This document shows, piece after piece, positions 44,675 through 50,811 of a stretch of 64,000 nt of DNA. The stretch's first letter is position 1, and each line of letters starts with the position of its first letter. The stretch is from NCBI GenBank assembly GCA_902525735.1, contig CABZIF010000001.1, positions 178,036 to 242,035 on the forward strand, in the 5' to 3' direction. The stretch comes from an uncultured SAR86 cluster bacterium. GTDB lineage: Bacteria; Pseudomonadota; Gammaproteobacteria; Magnimaribacterales; AG-339-G14. A model generated the notes under the pieces. It was not told the DNA's origin and made no database searches. It worked only from the letters and a program-made list of their open reading frames with translations. The translations under genes were made by a program, and so were the position numbers.

Positions 44675-45060
44675 AATTTTTCTCTTATTTTTTATTATTT
44701 GTTTCATATTTTGTTTTTACTCAAGAAGCTTTGAACTTATACTCTTTTTCATCCGAAGATCACGAACAAAGGTTTTATTCTTTGGCTGAGGAAATAAGTT
44801 GCCCGTTATGCGAAGGTTCAAGCATCAATGGTTCTACATCTCCAATAGCTAAAGACATGAAAAATATTATTTTTAATATGATTCTCGAAAATAAGAGCGA
44901 TGATCAAATTAAATTTTTTTTAACTGAAAAATTTGGTGACGATATTCTTTACATGCCTCCAGTAAATAACTTTTCTTATTTACTTTTTTTCTTTCCAATA
45001 ATTTTAATTTTATTATCAGCTTATTTTCTTTACTTGGTACTTCAAAAAAATGACAAGTAG
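44671..45060 (+). CDS. ccmH: Cytochrome c biogenesis protein CcmH
   Basis: Signal peptide, ISCPLC, FGDDILYMPP, C-terminal TM. Confidence 0.9.
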   Translation: MKFFSYFLLFVSYFVFTQEALNLYSFSSEDHEQRFYSLAEEISCPLCEGSSINGSTSPIAKDMKNIIFNMILENKSDDQIKFFLTEKFGDDILYMPPVNNFSYLLFFFPIILILLSAYFLYLVLQKNDK

Positions 45061-45634
45061 AATTCTTTTATTGATTTCAGTCATTACTGCTTTGTTAATT
45101 TATTTATCTATTGGTGGTTTTGATAATTTAACTAAACAGTCTTTTAGTTCTTTTTATAAAGGCGAAAAAGACGAAAATTTTATTTTAAATTTAAATACTA
45201 GAACTGATGAATTATTAAATTTGAATAGTTTGTCTGCGTCTGAATTGAATTTACTTGCTATGAATTTACTTGCGGATGGACACTATGATCAGTCATATAA
45301 GGTCTTAAATAAATATATTGCCGTTTACCCGGATCAAATTGATGCCGAAATTTATGCTGCCTATGCAGAGGTTCAATATCTTATTAACGATCTATCCTTC
45401 AACGCAAATATCTTAAAAAATTTGGAAAAATCTCTTTACCTTGACCCATCAAATCATAAAGCCCTTACAATGAAAGGGCTTTATTTATTTAGTCAAAGTG
45501 AATTTGAACTAGCTCTAAAAAGTTGGTCCGTTGCTCTAGAAAATGTAGATTCTGAAGACGAAAAAAAGTCTTTAATTTTAGTGATGAATACAGCTCTTAA
45601 AGAGTTAGAAATTAAAAAAAACAACAGTAAATAA
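45050..45634 (+). CDS. TPR protein, short CcmI/CycH-like
   Basis: TM with YLSIG, TPR-like helices (LDPSNHKAL); last gene of the ccm operon. Confidence 0.7.
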   Translation: MTSRILLLISVITALLIYLSIGGFDNLTKQSFSSFYKGEKDENFILNLNTRTDELLNLNSLSASELNLLAMNLLADGHYDQSYKVLNKYIAVYPDQIDAEIYAAYAEVQYLINDLSFNANILKNLEKSLYLDPSNHKALTMKGLYLFSQSEFELALKSWSVALENVDSEDEKKSLILVMNTALKELEIKKNNSK

Positions 45635-45671: not shown

Positions 45672-48104
45672 ATGCGATTAAAAAATATTAGTCTTTCAGG
45701 TTTTAAATCTTTCGTTGATCCAACGAAAATTAGCTTCCCCTCCAGTATGTCAGGCGTCGTAGGTCCAAATGGGTGTGGTAAATCAAACATTATTGATGCA
45801 GTTCGATGGGTGATGGGTGAAATTTCAGCAAAAAACCTAAGAGGAGAATCAATGGCCGATGTAATTTTTAATGGATCTTCATCTAGAGCCCCTTCAAGCA
45901 GAGCTTCAGTAGAACTTCTGTTTGATAATGATCAAGGCAGGATAGGGGGTGAATATTCTTCCTATTCAGAAATTTCAGTAAAAAGAGTATTAGATTTAGA
46001 CGGGAAATCTACTTATTCATTAAATGGATCTGAATGCAGAAGAAAAGACATAACCGACATATTTTTAGGAACCGGATTAGGTCCTAGAAGTTATGCCGTG
46101 ATTGAACAAGAAATGGCAACGAAATTAATAAGTTCAAAACCAGAAGAGTTGCGAGCTTATATAGAAGAAGTTGCTGGAATATCGATATACAGGGAAAGAA
46201 AAAAAGAAACAGAGTCGAGAATAAAAAAGACTAGAGAAAATCTTAATAGGGTTTCTGATATTCGCGATGAAATAGAAAGAGCTTTACTCAAACTCAATCA
46301 ACAGGTTAAGTCAGCTGAAAGATATAACTTTCTTAAGGAAAAAGAGAAAAAATTTAATGGTTTATTGAAAGCATTTAGTTGGCAAGCAAGAAATGAAGCT
46401 GCTTCAAAACTAGATTTAAGTGTTAAACAAACTGAATTAGAAATTGAAAAATTACAAACTGAAAAACAAAAGTTAATCAGTTCGATTGATGTCTTTAGGT
46501 CACAACAAAATGACTTACAGTCAGAAATAGATTCAATACAAGAAGATTTTTATTCAAGTGGAGCAAATCTTTCAAAGTCAGAACAACAACTAGTTTTTTT
46601 AAAAGATAAAAAAAATCAATTATCGATCGAACTAGAAACACAAAAAGAAAACCAACAAAATTTATCCGATAGAAAAGTTTCTTTTGTAAAAGAAATAGAA
46701 GATTTAAATACTGAACTTAAACAAAAAGAGCCTAAATTAGAAAAAATGGATGCATCCATTTCAAAACTTGATGGAGCTTTGTCTCCAGTATTTATTTTAA
46801 AACAAATTATGATCGAACAATCTAGCTTGATGAATAGTCTTGATGATTTCAAATTAAATTTTAACTCTAAGAGCAGTCAAGATTTAGACCCAATTATTAA
46901 TGATTTAAAAAAGTTTGAAGACAAACTTTCTCAGTTAAATGAAATACTAGAAAAACAAGAAGATTATCAAGAAGAAAAGTTTTTATCTCAAAAGAATGAT
47001 CTCTTAAAACTTAGCGGCGAGATAACAAGTCTCAAAGTAAAGATTGCGACAATATCTAGAGACATTGCTTCTATAGATGAACAAGAATATTTTGTCAGAG
47101 AGGCTTTTGAATCAAATACAAATCAACTTAAAGAATTAGAGCAGCCAATTCTTGAATTAGAAAAAGAGATGAAGCCTTTGTTAGATTCAAGGGCAAATGT
47201 AGAAGATGATTTAATAAATAGAAGATCAAAATTTGCTGAAATTTCTGATGAAATCAGACAATGTGAAAGAAGATCGCATGAAGTTGACATCTCCATTGAA
47301 AAAATCAGAACTGATTCTCAAGATTCAAAAGTTACCAGACAAGGATACCTGTCTGAAGCAGAGGTATATTTAAAACAATTAGAAAAAGACGATTTCGTTT
47401 TAGGAGATTTATTAAAAGAACTGGCCAATGATGAAACCGAAGAAAATCTCATTAATGAAATTTCTAAAATTGAGTCATCCATTTCAAGAATAGGGCAAAT
47501 AAATTTAGCTGCGGCAGAAGAATATAAAATTGAGGAAGAGAGGAAATTAGAAATAGAATCTCAATTCGCAGAATTAGAAAAGGCATTGACAACTTTACAA
47601 AACGCTATAAAGAAAATTGATTTGGAATCAAAAACCAAATTCAAAGACACCTTAGACCAATTGAATGTAAAAGTTGCTGAGTTGTTTCCCAAGCTTTTTG
47701 GAGGTGGACATGCCAGCCTTGAGTTAACTAGTGAAGACCTTCTTGAGTCAGGTGTTTTCTTTCGAGCAATGCCTCCGGGTAAAAAAAATGTAAATGTGTC
47801 TCAACTATCTGGTGGAGAAAAAGCACTTTCAGCAATTGCTTTGGTTTTCTCATTTTTTGCCCTCAATCCAGCTCCTTTTTGCATTTTGGATGAAATTGAT
47901 GCTCCACTGGATGATTTTAATACTGCTAGATTTATTTCCATGGTTAAAGAAATGTCAGATAAAGTCCAATTTATTTTCGTAACTCACAATAAGATCTCCA
48001 TGGAAAAAAGCAAGCATCTATTAGGAGTAACAATGCAAGAACCAGGTGTTTCTAGACTGGTATCTGTTGATGTAGACGAAGCAATAAAGTTAGCAGCCGT
48101 ATAA
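45672..48104 (+). CDS. smc: Chromosome segregation protein SMC, short form with no recognisable hinge
   Basis: GFKSF, GPNGCGKSN, LSGGE, ILDEIDAPLDD, VTH; smc-zipA-ligA synteny. Confidence 0.92.
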   Translation: MRLKNISLSGFKSFVDPTKISFPSSMSGVVGPNGCGKSNIIDAVRWVMGEISAKNLRGESMADVIFNGSSSRAPSSRASVELLFDNDQGRIGGEYSSYSEISVKRVLDLDGKSTYSLNGSECRRKDITDIFLGTGLGPRSYAVIEQEMATKLISSKPEELRAYIEEVAGISIYRERKKETESRIKKTRENLNRVSDIRDEIERALLKLNQQVKSAERYNFLKEKEKKFNGLLKAFSWQARNEAASKLDLSVKQTELEIEKLQTEKQKLISSIDVFRSQQNDLQSEIDSIQEDFYSSGANLSKSEQQLVFLKDKKNQLSIELETQKENQQNLSDRKVSFVKEIEDLNTELKQKEPKLEKMDASISKLDGALSPVFILKQIMIEQSSLMNSLDDFKLNFNSKSSQDLDPIINDLKKFEDKLSQLNEILEKQEDYQEEKFLSQKNDLLKLSGEITSLKVKIATISRDIASIDEQEYFVREAFESNTNQLKELEQPILELEKEMKPLLDSRANVEDDLINRRSKFAEISDEIRQCERRSHEVDISIEKIRTDSQDSKVTRQGYLSEAEVYLKQLEKDDFVLGDLLKELANDETEENLINEISKIESSISRIGQINLAAAEEYKIEEERKLEIESQFAELEKALTTLQNAIKKIDLESKTKFKDTLDQLNVKVAELFPKLFGGGHASLELTSEDLLESGVFFRAMPPGKKNVNVSQLSGGEKALSAIALVFSFFALNPAPFCILDEIDAPLDDFNTARFISMVKEMSDKVQFIFVTHNKISMEKSKHLLGVTMQEPGVSRLVSVDVDEAIKLAAV

Positions 48105-48766
48105 TGACTTTTAGTGAAATCTTAGTTTTATTTTTGGCTTTAGTAATAGCAATTACATTAGTACTAATGTTGAGAAAACTTTTTTTTGGCAGAAAAACAA
48201 AAATTCAAATTGATAAGAAAGTTAACTCTAGAGAACTCTTTGAGCCAGTTGGATCTGAGAATTCTGAAAAAGAAATTCCTCAAGATGATAATTTAGACGA
48301 ACTTGCTGAAGAAGGAATTTTAGATTCAAGTCCAGAAGGAGAAATTGAAAATGTTAAGCCTGAGATGCTTACTCTCCACCTTCAAAATACTGAAGAGTCA
48401 AAATTTTCTTACGATGCAATTAAAAAGTTTCTCGGTTCTAGCAGTATTGAATATAGTGATGAAGGGGGTTGGTTTAAAATTTCTATAGATGAGGATGACT
48501 CTTTTTTATTAGTCAACGGATTGAATCCAGGAAAGTTTGTTCCTGAGGACGGTTTGCTAGAAACCCAAGTCATGACTTTGATTTATTCTTTTAAACCTAA
48601 GGCCAATTCAGTGAGCGCTTTTTCCAAGATGATAGATATCGCTCAATTAATGGCAGAAAATTTTCAAAGTAAAATATTAGATTCTGATCGTAATAATTTA
48701 ACCAAACAAATGGTAGATCATTATTCGCAAATTGCAGAAGAGTATGATTTAAATAATCTCGCCTAA
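48104..48766 (+). CDS. zipA: Cell division protein ZipA-like
   Basis: N-terminal TM, acidic linker, C-terminal NPGKF...AFSKM...ILDSDRNNLT; located between smc and ligA. Confidence 0.8.
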   Translation: MTFSEILVLFLALVIAITLVLMLRKLFFGRKTKIQIDKKVNSRELFEPVGSENSEKEIPQDDNLDELAEEGILDSSPEGEIENVKPEMLTLHLQNTEESKFSYDAIKKFLGSSSIEYSDEGGWFKISIDEDDSFLLVNGLNPGKFVPEDGLLETQVMTLIYSFKPKANSVSAFSKMIDIAQLMAENFQSKILDSDRNNLTKQMVDHYSQIAEEYDLNNLA

Positions 48767-48768
48767 TC

Positions 48769-50811
48769 ATGGCAGCTAAAAAAGAAATCAAAGAAATATA
48801 CAGCTCTTTGAAAAATGAGATAAACCATCATAATTTTCTTTATCACAACAAAGATCAACCAGAAATTACAGATGTTGAGTATGATCAATTATTTCAAAAA
48901 CTTTTAAAACTTGAAGATGAATATCTTTTTTTAGACAAAAGTGATTCTCCAAGCTCTAGAGTTGGAGACACTCCTCAATCAGATTTGAAAGAATTCCTTC
49001 ATGAGGTACCTATGTTATCTCTAGATAATGCCTTTGAGTCTGAAGATTTATATGATTTTGAAAAAAGGGTTTTTAACAAAATAAAAAAACAAAAGCTTCA
49101 TTATTCTTGTGAGCCAAAAATAGATGGTGTTGCAGTTAGCTTAATTTATGAAAAAGGAAAATTTATCAAAGCAGGAACTAGAGGCGATGGCGAACAGGGA
49201 GAAGATATTACTCATAATGTTAAAACAATAAAACAAATTCCTTTAACCTTAAATGGAAATAATTTTCCAAAAAAAATAGAAATAAGAGGTGAAATATATT
49301 GCGAAAAGACAGCGTTTGATAAATTTAACAAAGAGTATTCCAAGTCTGACCAAAAGACCTTTGCAAATCCAAGAAATTTTGTAGCCGGGAGCATTAGACA
49401 ACTCAATCCTGAAATAGCGGCAGCAAGGCCATTAAAAATTCAATTGCATAGTTTAGGTTATGTGGATCAAAAAAATTTCTTCAAATCTCATCACGAAATG
49501 CTTGATACCTTTCTAAGTTGGAATTTACCGATTAATCCTGATATTGGCCTAGTTGATTCAATTGATGCAGTTATTTCATATTGTGAAAAATTAACAAATA
49601 AAAGAGAAGCTTTAAACTATGAAATAGACGGAGTAGTGATAAAAATTGATGACGTGTCTCTTCAACAAGAGCTTGGTTTTTCATCAAGATCTCCCAAATG
49701 GTCAATTGCCAAAAAATTTAAAGCTGAAGAAGGCACAACTGAAGTATTGTCAGTAAATTTTCAAATGGGAAGAACTGGAGCTTTAACACCAGTTGCTAAT
49801 CTAAAACCAGTTAAATTAGGCGGTGTAACAATTTCAAATGCAACACTGCATAATATGGATGAAGTTGAAAGGCTAGACATAAGAATAGGAGATTTTGTCA
49901 AAGTAAAAAGAGCTGGGGATGTAATTCCCAAAGTTATTAAAGTAGAAAAAAATAAAAGAAAGGGTAAAAATAAAAAAATAATACAACCAACTCATTGTTC
50001 AAGTTGCTCGAGACCTCTAAAATTTTTCGAAGGATTAACTCCTAATTTAGATCTATCAAAATTAGAGAACGAGGATCAAAGTTGTTATGGCTATAGCCAA
50101 TTTAAAGAAACTTTAAAACACTTTGTTTCAAGACAGGCAATGGACATAGATGGCCTTGGTTCAAAAACCATTGATCAAATGGTTGATAAAGGAATAATTA
50201 AATCTATAAAAGATTTATACCTTTTAAAAAAAGAAAGCTTTGTTGAGTTAGATGGTTTTGCAGAGAAATCTATCAATAATTTGCTCAGTTCTATAAATAA
50301 AAGCAAGAACATTAGGTTAAGTAATTTTATATATGCTTTAGGCATTAAAGAGATTGGTCTCGAAACTTCAAAAAATTTATCAAAAAGATTCTTAAAAATT
50401 GAAAATATTTTTTCAGCTTCAGTAGATGATTTTATATCAGTAGACGACATAGGCGAAGTTGCATCAGCTAATCTGCATGCATTTTTTTCAGACAAACTTA
50501 ATATTAAGTTTTTAGAAGAAATTATTAATTTAGGTTTTAAACTTGAGGCAGAAAAGGTTACCTCTCAAACTTCTAAACTCGGCGGTAAAAAAATTGCTAT
50601 CACAGGAAAACTATCTTTCATCTCAAGAGATGAATTGAAATCTAAATTAGAAGATCTTGGCGTGAAAGTTGTGAATTCGATTTCAAAAAATACAGATTAT
50701 GTAATTGTTGGATCTGATGCTGGCTCTAAATTAGAGAAAGCAAGATCTCTAAACATTGAAATAATATCAGATAAAAATTTGGACACTTTTTTGAAGCAAA
50801 ATGAAAATTAA
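48769..50811 (+). CDS. ligA: NAD-dependent DNA ligase
   Basis: PMLSLDN, EPKIDG, TRGDG, RAGDVIP, C-terminal BRCT. Confidence 0.97.
   Translation: MAAKKEIKEIYSSLKNEINHHNFLYHNKDQPEITDVEYDQLFQKLLKLEDEYLFLDKSDSPSSRVGDTPQSDLKEFLHEVPMLSLDNAFESEDLYDFEKRVFNKIKKQKLHYSCEPKIDGVAVSLIYEKGKFIKAGTRGDGEQGEDITHNVKTIKQIPLTLNGNNFPKKIEIRGEIYCEKTAFDKFNKEYSKSDQKTFANPRNFVAGSIRQLNPEIAAARPLKIQLHSLGYVDQKNFFKSHHEMLDTFLSWNLPINPDIGLVDSIDAVISYCEKLTNKREALNYEIDGVVIKIDDVSLQQELGFSSRSPKWSIAKKFKAEEGTTEVLSVNFQMGRTGALTPVANLKPVKLGGVTISNATLHNMDEVERLDIRIGDFVKVKRAGDVIPKVIKVEKNKRKGKNKKIIQPTHCSSCSRPLKFFEGLTPNLDLSKLENEDQSCYGYSQFKETLKHFVSRQAMDIDGLGSKTIDQMVDKGIIKSIKDLYLLKKESFVELDGFAEKSINNLLSSINKSKNIRLSNFIYALGIKEIGLETSKNLSKRFLKIENIFSASVDDFISVDDIGEVASANLHAFFSDKLNIKFLEEIINLGFKLEAEKVTSQTSKLGGKKIAITGKLSFISRDELKSKLEDLGVKVVNSISKNTDYVIVGSDAGSKLEKARSLNIEIISDKNLDTFLKQNEN

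Follow-up and report, generated by a model that had tools for sequence, protein, structure and literature searches.

Background

The hinge is regarded as one of the defining features of SMC proteins and has been proposed as their site of dimerisation, as a DNA-binding site and as a gate for DNA. RecN, by comparison, dimerises via the end of its coiled coil. Here we describe an smc gene whose product, at 810 amino acids (aa), has no recognisable hinge. The gene lies at 45672-48104 on the forward strand of a 64,000-nucleotide stretch of DNA (the window) from an uncultured bacterium of the SAR86 cluster (assembly GCA_902525735.1, contig CABZIF010000001.1, positions 178,036 to 242,035). Only one report of a natural hinge-less SMC was found in the full-text literature, that of a small, very abundant oceanic cluster without hinge or CxxC motif (PMC12153180, Environ Microbiome 2025), which the hinge passages of that paper assign to the Actinomycetes, place on a branch with actinobacterial seeds and describe as having no regular SMC alongside. 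Engineered counterparts exist for Bacillus subtilis. A figure legend in PMC5344682 calls functional a Smc in which a Rad50 zinc hook stands instead of the hinge and, as described in the same paper, engineered Mini-Smc proteins work at certain arm lengths only.

An smc gene that lacks the hinge region

The open reading frame (ORF) is intact and runs without interruption to a stop codon at 48102-48104. That it retains all motifs of the ATPase head, as stated in the initial annotation, is borne out by the ORF call, the translation and a 27-sequence alignment in which Walker A (G31-S38, GPNGCGKS), Q146, the LSGGE motif (L712-E716), Walker B (L739-D740-E741), the D-loop and H772 of the H-loop are all invariant. 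The product scores 791.3 bits against the NCBIfam equivalog model SMC_prok_B (TIGR02168; cut-off 567.35) and, in Pfam, matches SMC_N over residues 3-794 together with generic AAA families. The TIGR02168 alignment falls into two stretches, with residues 2-434 on profile positions 1-424 and residues ~413-810 on positions 791-1181, and the intervening ~366 profile positions (425-790) are unmatched. The deletion was mapped by BLASTP against a 1169-aa gammaproteobacterial SMC, in which residues 1-354 align with residues 1-354 at 49% identity and residues 491-810 with residues 850-1169 at 48% identity. Between these, 136 residues of the short protein replace 495 of its relative, and 359 are missing.

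The N-terminal half of the head, with Walker A and the Q-loop, corresponds to residues 1-169 (45672-46178, forward strand, as for all parts of the gene), and the head-proximal C-terminal helix and C-terminal half of the head, with LSGGE, Walker B, D-loop and H-loop, to residues 614-810 (47511-48101); both assignments follow from the invariant motifs, the BLASTP alignments and the best sequence matches in the PDB, which are Smc heads (E 5e-98). The top Foldseek match of the whole predicted model is 5xei, a Smc head with coiled coil and joint. Between the two halves of the head, residues 170-650 include only 12 prolines and glycines, and the proline-containing breaks noted earlier near the midpoint are at the places named, SKLDGALSP at 364-372 and SQDLDP at 402-407. 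A crude scan for hydrophobic periodicity in the arms gave no clear pattern.

No match to SMC_hinge (PF06470) was found in the 810-aa protein with Pfam, in residues 340-500 at E <= 10 or in the whole genome at E <= 1, and no structure match to a hinge lies in the middle of the protein. When residues 340-500 were searched alone, they returned helical Pfam families below threshold and PDB matches at chance level (coiled coils of viral fusion proteins, E >= 0.16). The only cysteines are at positions 35, 122, 531 and 737, leaving no CxxC hook, and the Rad50 models of NCBIfam score 40-50 bits with cut-offs of 700-1087. The Pfam scan and the cysteine positions thus agree with the initial annotation in finding neither a recognisable hinge nor a hook. 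A second SMC, a MukB and a free-standing hinge were also looked for in the genome that holds the window, and none was found. The Pfam hinge model does miss divergent hinges, as SMC proteins of 1156-1230 aa are encoded in 7 of 18 hinge-negative genomes of the class that were examined, and the decisive point for hinge loss is therefore the missing 359 residues. Sequence comparison supports the absence from this protein of the hinge and of ~100 aa of each distal arm strand.

Conservation of the short gene

The genome that holds the window is a 1.18-Mb assembly with ~30% G+C in 16 contigs, estimated to be ~91.8% complete, and such an assembly could in principle contain a joining error or a decaying gene. 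We give next to no credence to an artefact or pseudogene as the source of the short smc. Among 41 genomes of the same order, representing four families and twelve genera and including several that consist of a single contig, 39 have an SMC match, with the same architecture also in single-contig genomes, and the open frames with both N- and C-terminal SMC matches span 733-843 aa, with one of 1006 aa. Of 251 genomes sampled from the order, none has a hinge match above the Pfam cut-off. One genus gave four weak PF06470 hits (E 0.025-0.09), in frames of 274-290 aa, that were treated as noise; the hit inspected lies in a 272-aa ORF that follows immediately after one of 253 aa, a pair that we tentatively take to be ApaH and RsmA/KsgA.

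The extracted proteins have fixed lengths. All nine from family 1, to which the window belongs, are 810 aa, across four genera; those of family 2 are 821-827 aa, of family 3 730-732 aa and of family 4 732-736 aa, with a 995-aa SMC in one genus of family 3. A metagenome search with the apex region returned 232 proteins and, among the 120 cluster representatives listed, 104 are exactly 810 aa, none is longer, and short contigs account for most of the 16 that are shorter. A 1.2-Mb contig carries a homologue (P0050) called as 561 rather than 810 aa, which may reflect a differing gene call or breakage of this copy. The gene was found in public sequencing runs from marine or seawater metagenomes. 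From 4 of the 24 runs listed, contigs were compared with the gene: those of two DNA studies cover 30 of 30 bins of smc without indels or joints, and an RNA study contributed two libraries whose contigs reach 27 and 25 of these bins, which is no proof of transcription. No full-length smc was found in relatives or in the contigs of these runs.

The ratio of nonsynonymous to synonymous substitution rates (dN/dS), calculated against the closest relative (G008, 95% identity), is 0.008-0.023 in the heads, 0.024-0.057 in the arms and 0.093 in the apex. This was the only usable pair, as pairs with G006, G009, G024, G010 and G013 are saturated at synonymous sites, and those with G014 and G017 were disregarded because they were out of register in the ungapped alignment (identity 0.32). 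With its frame intact, its head motifs invariant and its length recurring in independent assemblies, the short smc is real, hinge-less, conserved and under purifying selection.

The apex and its predicted dimer

AlphaFold2 predicts for the 810-aa protein (mean predicted local distance difference test score, pLDDT, 73) one continuous N-terminal arm helix over residues 170-363 (46179-46760), collinear with residues 1-354 of the 1169-aa SMC as far as that alignment extends, and then a break. The apex that stands in place of the distal arms and hinge, residues 364-432 (46761-46967), consists in the model of a helix (373-395), a tip loop (396-401), a second helix (402-425) and a break (426-432), with no beta hinge. 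The chain then returns in a C-terminal arm helix, residues 433-572 (46968-47387), that from residue 491 is collinear with residue 850 onward of the full-length SMC. The coiled coil is interrupted close to the head, with breaks at 573-576, 584-589 and 608-613, before the chain enters the head, and the interrupted stretch, residues 573-613 (47388-47510), is probably the Smc joint, given these breaks and the match to 5xei; the joint of Smc is described in PMC5526789. A model of a 734-aa SMC from family 4 has the same layout, with helices at 170-333, 343-360, 368-389 and from 394 onward. In both models the apex is all-helical, in keeping with the earlier proposal that a short helical hairpin replaces the distal arms and hinge.

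Residues 320-480 were also predicted as a homodimer (ESMFold2, with a custom alignment). The score was 0.54 (runs 0.54, 0.59 and 0.50), and the best of three controls reached 0.00. At least 47% of contacts agree between runs and the pLDDT of the partner is at least 71. The most confident interchain contacts pair residues 376-394 with residues 402-423, with residue numbers that sum to ~798, in a tip interface that spans residues 372-427, and residues 433-474 of the two chains touch as well. The model supports binding without showing it. The contact list suggests a four-helix bundle formed by two tips, with a two-fold axis along the arms and the arms side by side, an arrangement that recalls the rod form of Smc with its arms side by side described in PMC5526789. 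The initial annotation envisaged either a RecN-like contact between apices or an open V; the prediction favours dimerisation of the apex over the open V, with a contact that is parallel rather than end-to-end.

We infer from these results tip dimerisation, closure of a ring and condensin activity. In the ancestor of the order, the hinge domain would have disappeared along with ~100 residues from either distal arm strand, leaving an SMC whose ATPase head is complete and which has a probable joint and an antiparallel coiled-coil arm of ~235 residues per strand that ends in a helix-loop-helix tip (helices 373-395 and 402-425). Packed together as a four-helix bundle, with side-by-side arms, two such tips would take over what seems to be the one indispensable task of the hinge, joining two SMC chains away from the heads. 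We consider it rather probable that the protein is a smaller but working Smc-ScpAB condensin, closed at its far end by this helical tip bundle.

Several results weigh against that conclusion. The pLDDT of the apex is modest (45-69 over residues 361-450); in the 27 sequences there are no invariant columns between residues 305 and 510, and indels separate the families. The dimer was predicted for one family and from a fragment, in which cut coiled coils may pair spuriously via their hydrophobic seams, and in calibration 20 of 30 proteins with structures solved as one-chain pairs, and 1 of 23 solved as single chains, came up to this mark, counts that are only rough when a custom alignment is used. 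As the apex sequence is unconserved between the four families, any dimerisation module common to them could be conserved only in its shape.

The main rival starts from the same observations. If the tips do not dimerise, the two chains would be joined by the ATP-engaged heads, the ScpA bridge and weak side-by-side contacts between arms. In that case only the head/kleisin compartment would hold DNA, and the arms would serve as levers or spacers without forming a closed ring. The unconserved sequence and low pLDDT of the apex are in line with this, and arm-arm contacts do add to the dimerisation of a hinge-less B. subtilis Smc, as described in PMC5526789. Its difficulties are that the homodimer contacts of top confidence centre on the tip helices (residues 373-425; 0.54 vs 0.00), that the apex is under purifying selection (dN/dS 0.093) and that the length is exactly 810 aa across four genera, which argues that the geometry of the tip matters. 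On this evidence we regard non-dimerising tips as unlikely.

Arm lengths contribute little to the choice. The arms are estimated at ~235 residues per strand in the 810-aa form and ~198 in the 730-736-aa forms, using head boundaries taken by analogy with a 1186-aa Smc rather than computed. Prokaryotic SMC arms are described in PMC5344682 as having a main mode at 341 aa and a second at 238 aa, and the ~235-aa arm of family 1 is near the latter. This agreement is weak evidence, since the ~198-aa arms of the 730-736-aa forms fit no reported mode, a point that counts against a condensin of the proposed kind.

Partner genes and genomic context

The initial annotation called for a search for scpA, scpB and parB, and all are present in the same genome. 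Genes for ScpA (279 aa) and ScpB (210 aa) are adjacent on contig C5, and a parA-parB pair lies beside an ATP synthase A-chain gene. ScpB was found in 39 of the 41 relatives and in all 29 of high quality. For the condensin with dimerised tips, ScpA would bridge the heads, ScpB would bind ScpA and ParB-parS would load the complex, to act on a chromosome of 0.9-1.8 Mb. Retention of ScpA and ScpB also speaks for the alternative in which heads and kleisin alone hold the chains together.

Downstream of smc are zipA (48104-48766, forward strand), which encodes a 220-aa protein identified by Pfam ZipA_C (E 2e-14), and ligA (48769-50811, forward strand), which encodes a 680-aa protein matched by NF005932 with 800 bits. 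These family scans substantiate the smc-zipA-ligA locus that the initial annotation called canonical, a locus that ligA serves to mark. The C-terminal FtsZ-binding domain of ZipA is matched (54 bits in Pfam) and the protein scores 30 bits against the full ZipA model (cut-off 120), such that it appears to be much shortened. Upstream of smc are ccmF-G-H genes and, following ccmH, a gene for a 194-aa tetratricopeptide repeat (TPR) protein (45050-45634, forward strand) that ends 38 bases before smc and scores 29.5 bits against the CcmH/CycH TPR domain, below the Pfam cut-off of 42.

A different possibility is that the SMC has left the condensin role and become a RecN-like factor for repair or cohesion, or that it does both jobs. 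A head with a shorter coiled coil and no hinge does resemble RecN, and RecN itself (TIGR00634) was found neither in the genome that holds the window nor in any of the 41 genomes sampled from the order, of which six are single-contig assemblies, in a search whose controls match. The only other SMC_N matches in the genome are a 341-aa frame and weak hits in frames of 220-942 aa, and the 341-aa frame is probably RecF. These points are offset by several others. The protein scores as the SMC equivalog, and the 22 NCBIfam families that it matches at E <= 0.01 do not include RecN; the gene sits in the smc-zipA-ligA locus; the condensin partners ScpA, ScpB and ParB are kept throughout the order; and the loss of RecN may be a mere consequence of genome reduction. 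A RecN-like function appears to us very improbable.

Orthology and history

In 67 of 80 gammaproteobacterial loci, ligA lies ~1 kb downstream of a full-length smc; searched for by tblastn in the gap between smc and ligA, zipA gave 4 hits, being too divergent in most of the 80 loci. The search for related loci returned SMC loci of other Gammaproteobacteria only, with matches mostly of ~3.5 kb. A maximum-likelihood tree of 13 of 24 short SMCs and of 28 full-length SMCs selected from 89 candidate loci (3 fetched whole, 6 from hinge-negative genomes of the class and 80 related loci, with L056, L102, L118 and L133 left out for want of an ORF) was built on the two ends of each protein (the first 350 and the last 320 residues). 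All 13 short SMCs fall on one side of a branch and the 28 full-length SMCs on the other (98 in the Shimodaira-Hasegawa-like approximate likelihood ratio test, SH-aLRT), in a tree that came from a quick search, is unrooted and has a skewed composition in many rows. Inside the short group, families 3 and 4 (~733 aa) are sisters, as are families 1 and 2 (810-827 aa). The 810-aa SMC is a true orthologue of gammaproteobacterial smc and the only SMC of the organism, and the simplest reading of the alignments and tree would be that the hinge was lost once, in an ancestor of the whole order.

The 995-aa form (P0123, at L003:1498-4482, genome G035, family 3, genus 11) is also hinge-less. Its stretch 326-659 is a repeat, at 31% identity, of what corresponds to residues 209-539 in the 732-aa form, a pattern from which its length is explained as a secondary elongation by nested duplication of the arm hairpin, adding an apparent ~131 residues per strand.

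Distribution outside the order

In a sample of the class, 118 of 151 genomes (a tally that includes two flagged as unpublished, G079 and G180) have a hinge above the cut-off, in frames mostly of 1150-1260 aa. A short SMC with both ends matched was found in none of the 18 genomes examined of the 32 that are hinge-negative; two of the 18, G050 (at a contig start) and G105, have partial SMC matches only. The match in G105, a 1.5-Mb genome of another family that is 98% complete, is in a 379-aa frame (G105:C5:51513-52622) and is C-terminal only (profile 807-1181); with no N-terminal SMC half at E <= 1e-10, it may reflect a split or truncated smc. Small genomes of the class outside the order (1.4-1.5 Mb) retain the hinge in frames of 1170-1193 aa, and small genome size alone is therefore no explanation for its loss.

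A profile of 27 short SMCs was searched against 1.84 billion representatives. Among its best 150 matches are the five length classes of the order (810, 827, 995, 732 and 736 aa), a single protein of 990 aa and 144 of 1132-1220 aa. The one of 990 aa (P0165) has a hinge (PF06470, 26 bits, residues 436-532), which establishes that short-armed SMCs with hinges exist near this family. In a sample of the phylum, 69 of 121 genomes have an SMC match at E <= 1e-60, with frames of 1129-1523 aa, the exceptions being that of the window itself and one gene split at contig ends. Within the samples searched, the hinge-less short SMC is restricted to the order. Leads from the ESM Atlas, which shows at most three Pfam families per cluster, are clusters of short SMC_N proteins: two from Actinomycetota (736 and 882 aa), one from Minisyncoccota (747 aa), two from Spirochaetota (872 and 919 aa) and three from Pseudomonadota (798, 817 and 905 aa).

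Implications

A natural Smc-ScpAB that is constrained by selection and has no hinge throughout an order of bacteria abundant in the ocean implies that no role of the hinge needs the hinge fold itself and that, at most, a small dimeriser is required in its place. At 810 aa, and at 730-736 aa in two families, these SMCs are compact material for structural and single-molecule work, and the apex is a ready-made piece for swapping into B. subtilis Smc. The fixed length classes, together with the 995-aa form and its duplicated hairpin, provide natural data on the rules of arm length.

Taken together, the results may be read as indicating that the hinge is dispensable in nature, that a new, zinc-free tip in the form of a four-helix bundle has long served, on an evolutionary scale, the only Smc-ScpAB of the order and that this loss was independent of that in the Actinomycetes. 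We put forward this joint reading tentatively, as less likely than not. If true, then with the Atlas leads from other small-genome phyla, hinge loss would be a recurrent outcome of streamlining, and the protein would be a natural, purifiable counter-example to those models of loop extrusion or entrapment in which DNA binding or a gate at the hinge is essential. The same SMC might also cover the role of RecN, not found in the order.

Comparison with known systems

With canonical Smc-ScpAB of the B. subtilis type, the system described here has in common the motifs of the head, the probable joint, the antiparallel arm and genes for ScpA, ScpB and ParAB, and its smc has the same position relative to zipA and ligA as in other Gammaproteobacteria. 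It differs in that the hinge is absent, each arm strand has ~100 fewer residues, the far end is a predicted helix-loop-helix and the protein has 810 aa, as compared with 1129-1523 aa in the phylum sample. RecN likewise has an SMC-type head, a shorter coiled coil and no globular hinge. The SMC of the window nevertheless matches no RecN family and has kept its kleisin partners, its arms are much longer than those of a protein with the length of the 563-position RecN model, and its predicted tip contact is parallel and not end-to-end. Rad50/SbcC also combines an ABC-type head and a long antiparallel coiled coil with a small apex dimeriser in lieu of a hinge, but here the CxxC zinc hook is missing, Rad50 models remain below their cut-offs and the partners are ScpAB rather than Mre11/SbcD. 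Of the B. subtilis constructs described in PMC5344682, the Mini-Smc has similarly shortened arms but keeps its hinge, and the Smc(zinc-hook) chimera similarly has a small dimeriser, in its case a foreign one, in the form of a zinc hook; the SMC described here is natural and has neither hinge nor hook.

The closest relative in kind is the oceanic cluster of PMC12153180, which as described there is also marine, with an SMC head and coiled coil and without hinge, CxxC or a regular SMC alongside. The words SAR86 and Gammaproteobacteria do not occur in the main text of that paper, and its passages on the hinge in section 15 and the discussion make no mention of ScpAB, ParB, synteny or a dimer model. 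The two are set apart here by description, as the supplements give OM-RGC gene ids only: that cluster branches with actinobacterial seeds, whereas the present SMC groups with those of Gammaproteobacteria, and by this sequence grouping its hinge loss is likely to have been independent. The suggestion in the initial annotation that this is an undescribed system consequently stands in part, in that the published cluster is actinomycete and was presented in those passages without genomic context, and fails in part, in that a hinge-less oceanic SMC has been in print since 2025. With such an SMC published for another phylum, the present case is not categorically new and the phenomenon itself was already known. 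What is new is a second, gammaproteobacterial lineage, its partner genes and a dimer model which, together with the fixed lengths, add substance to the question of how an SMC works without a hinge and make it testable.

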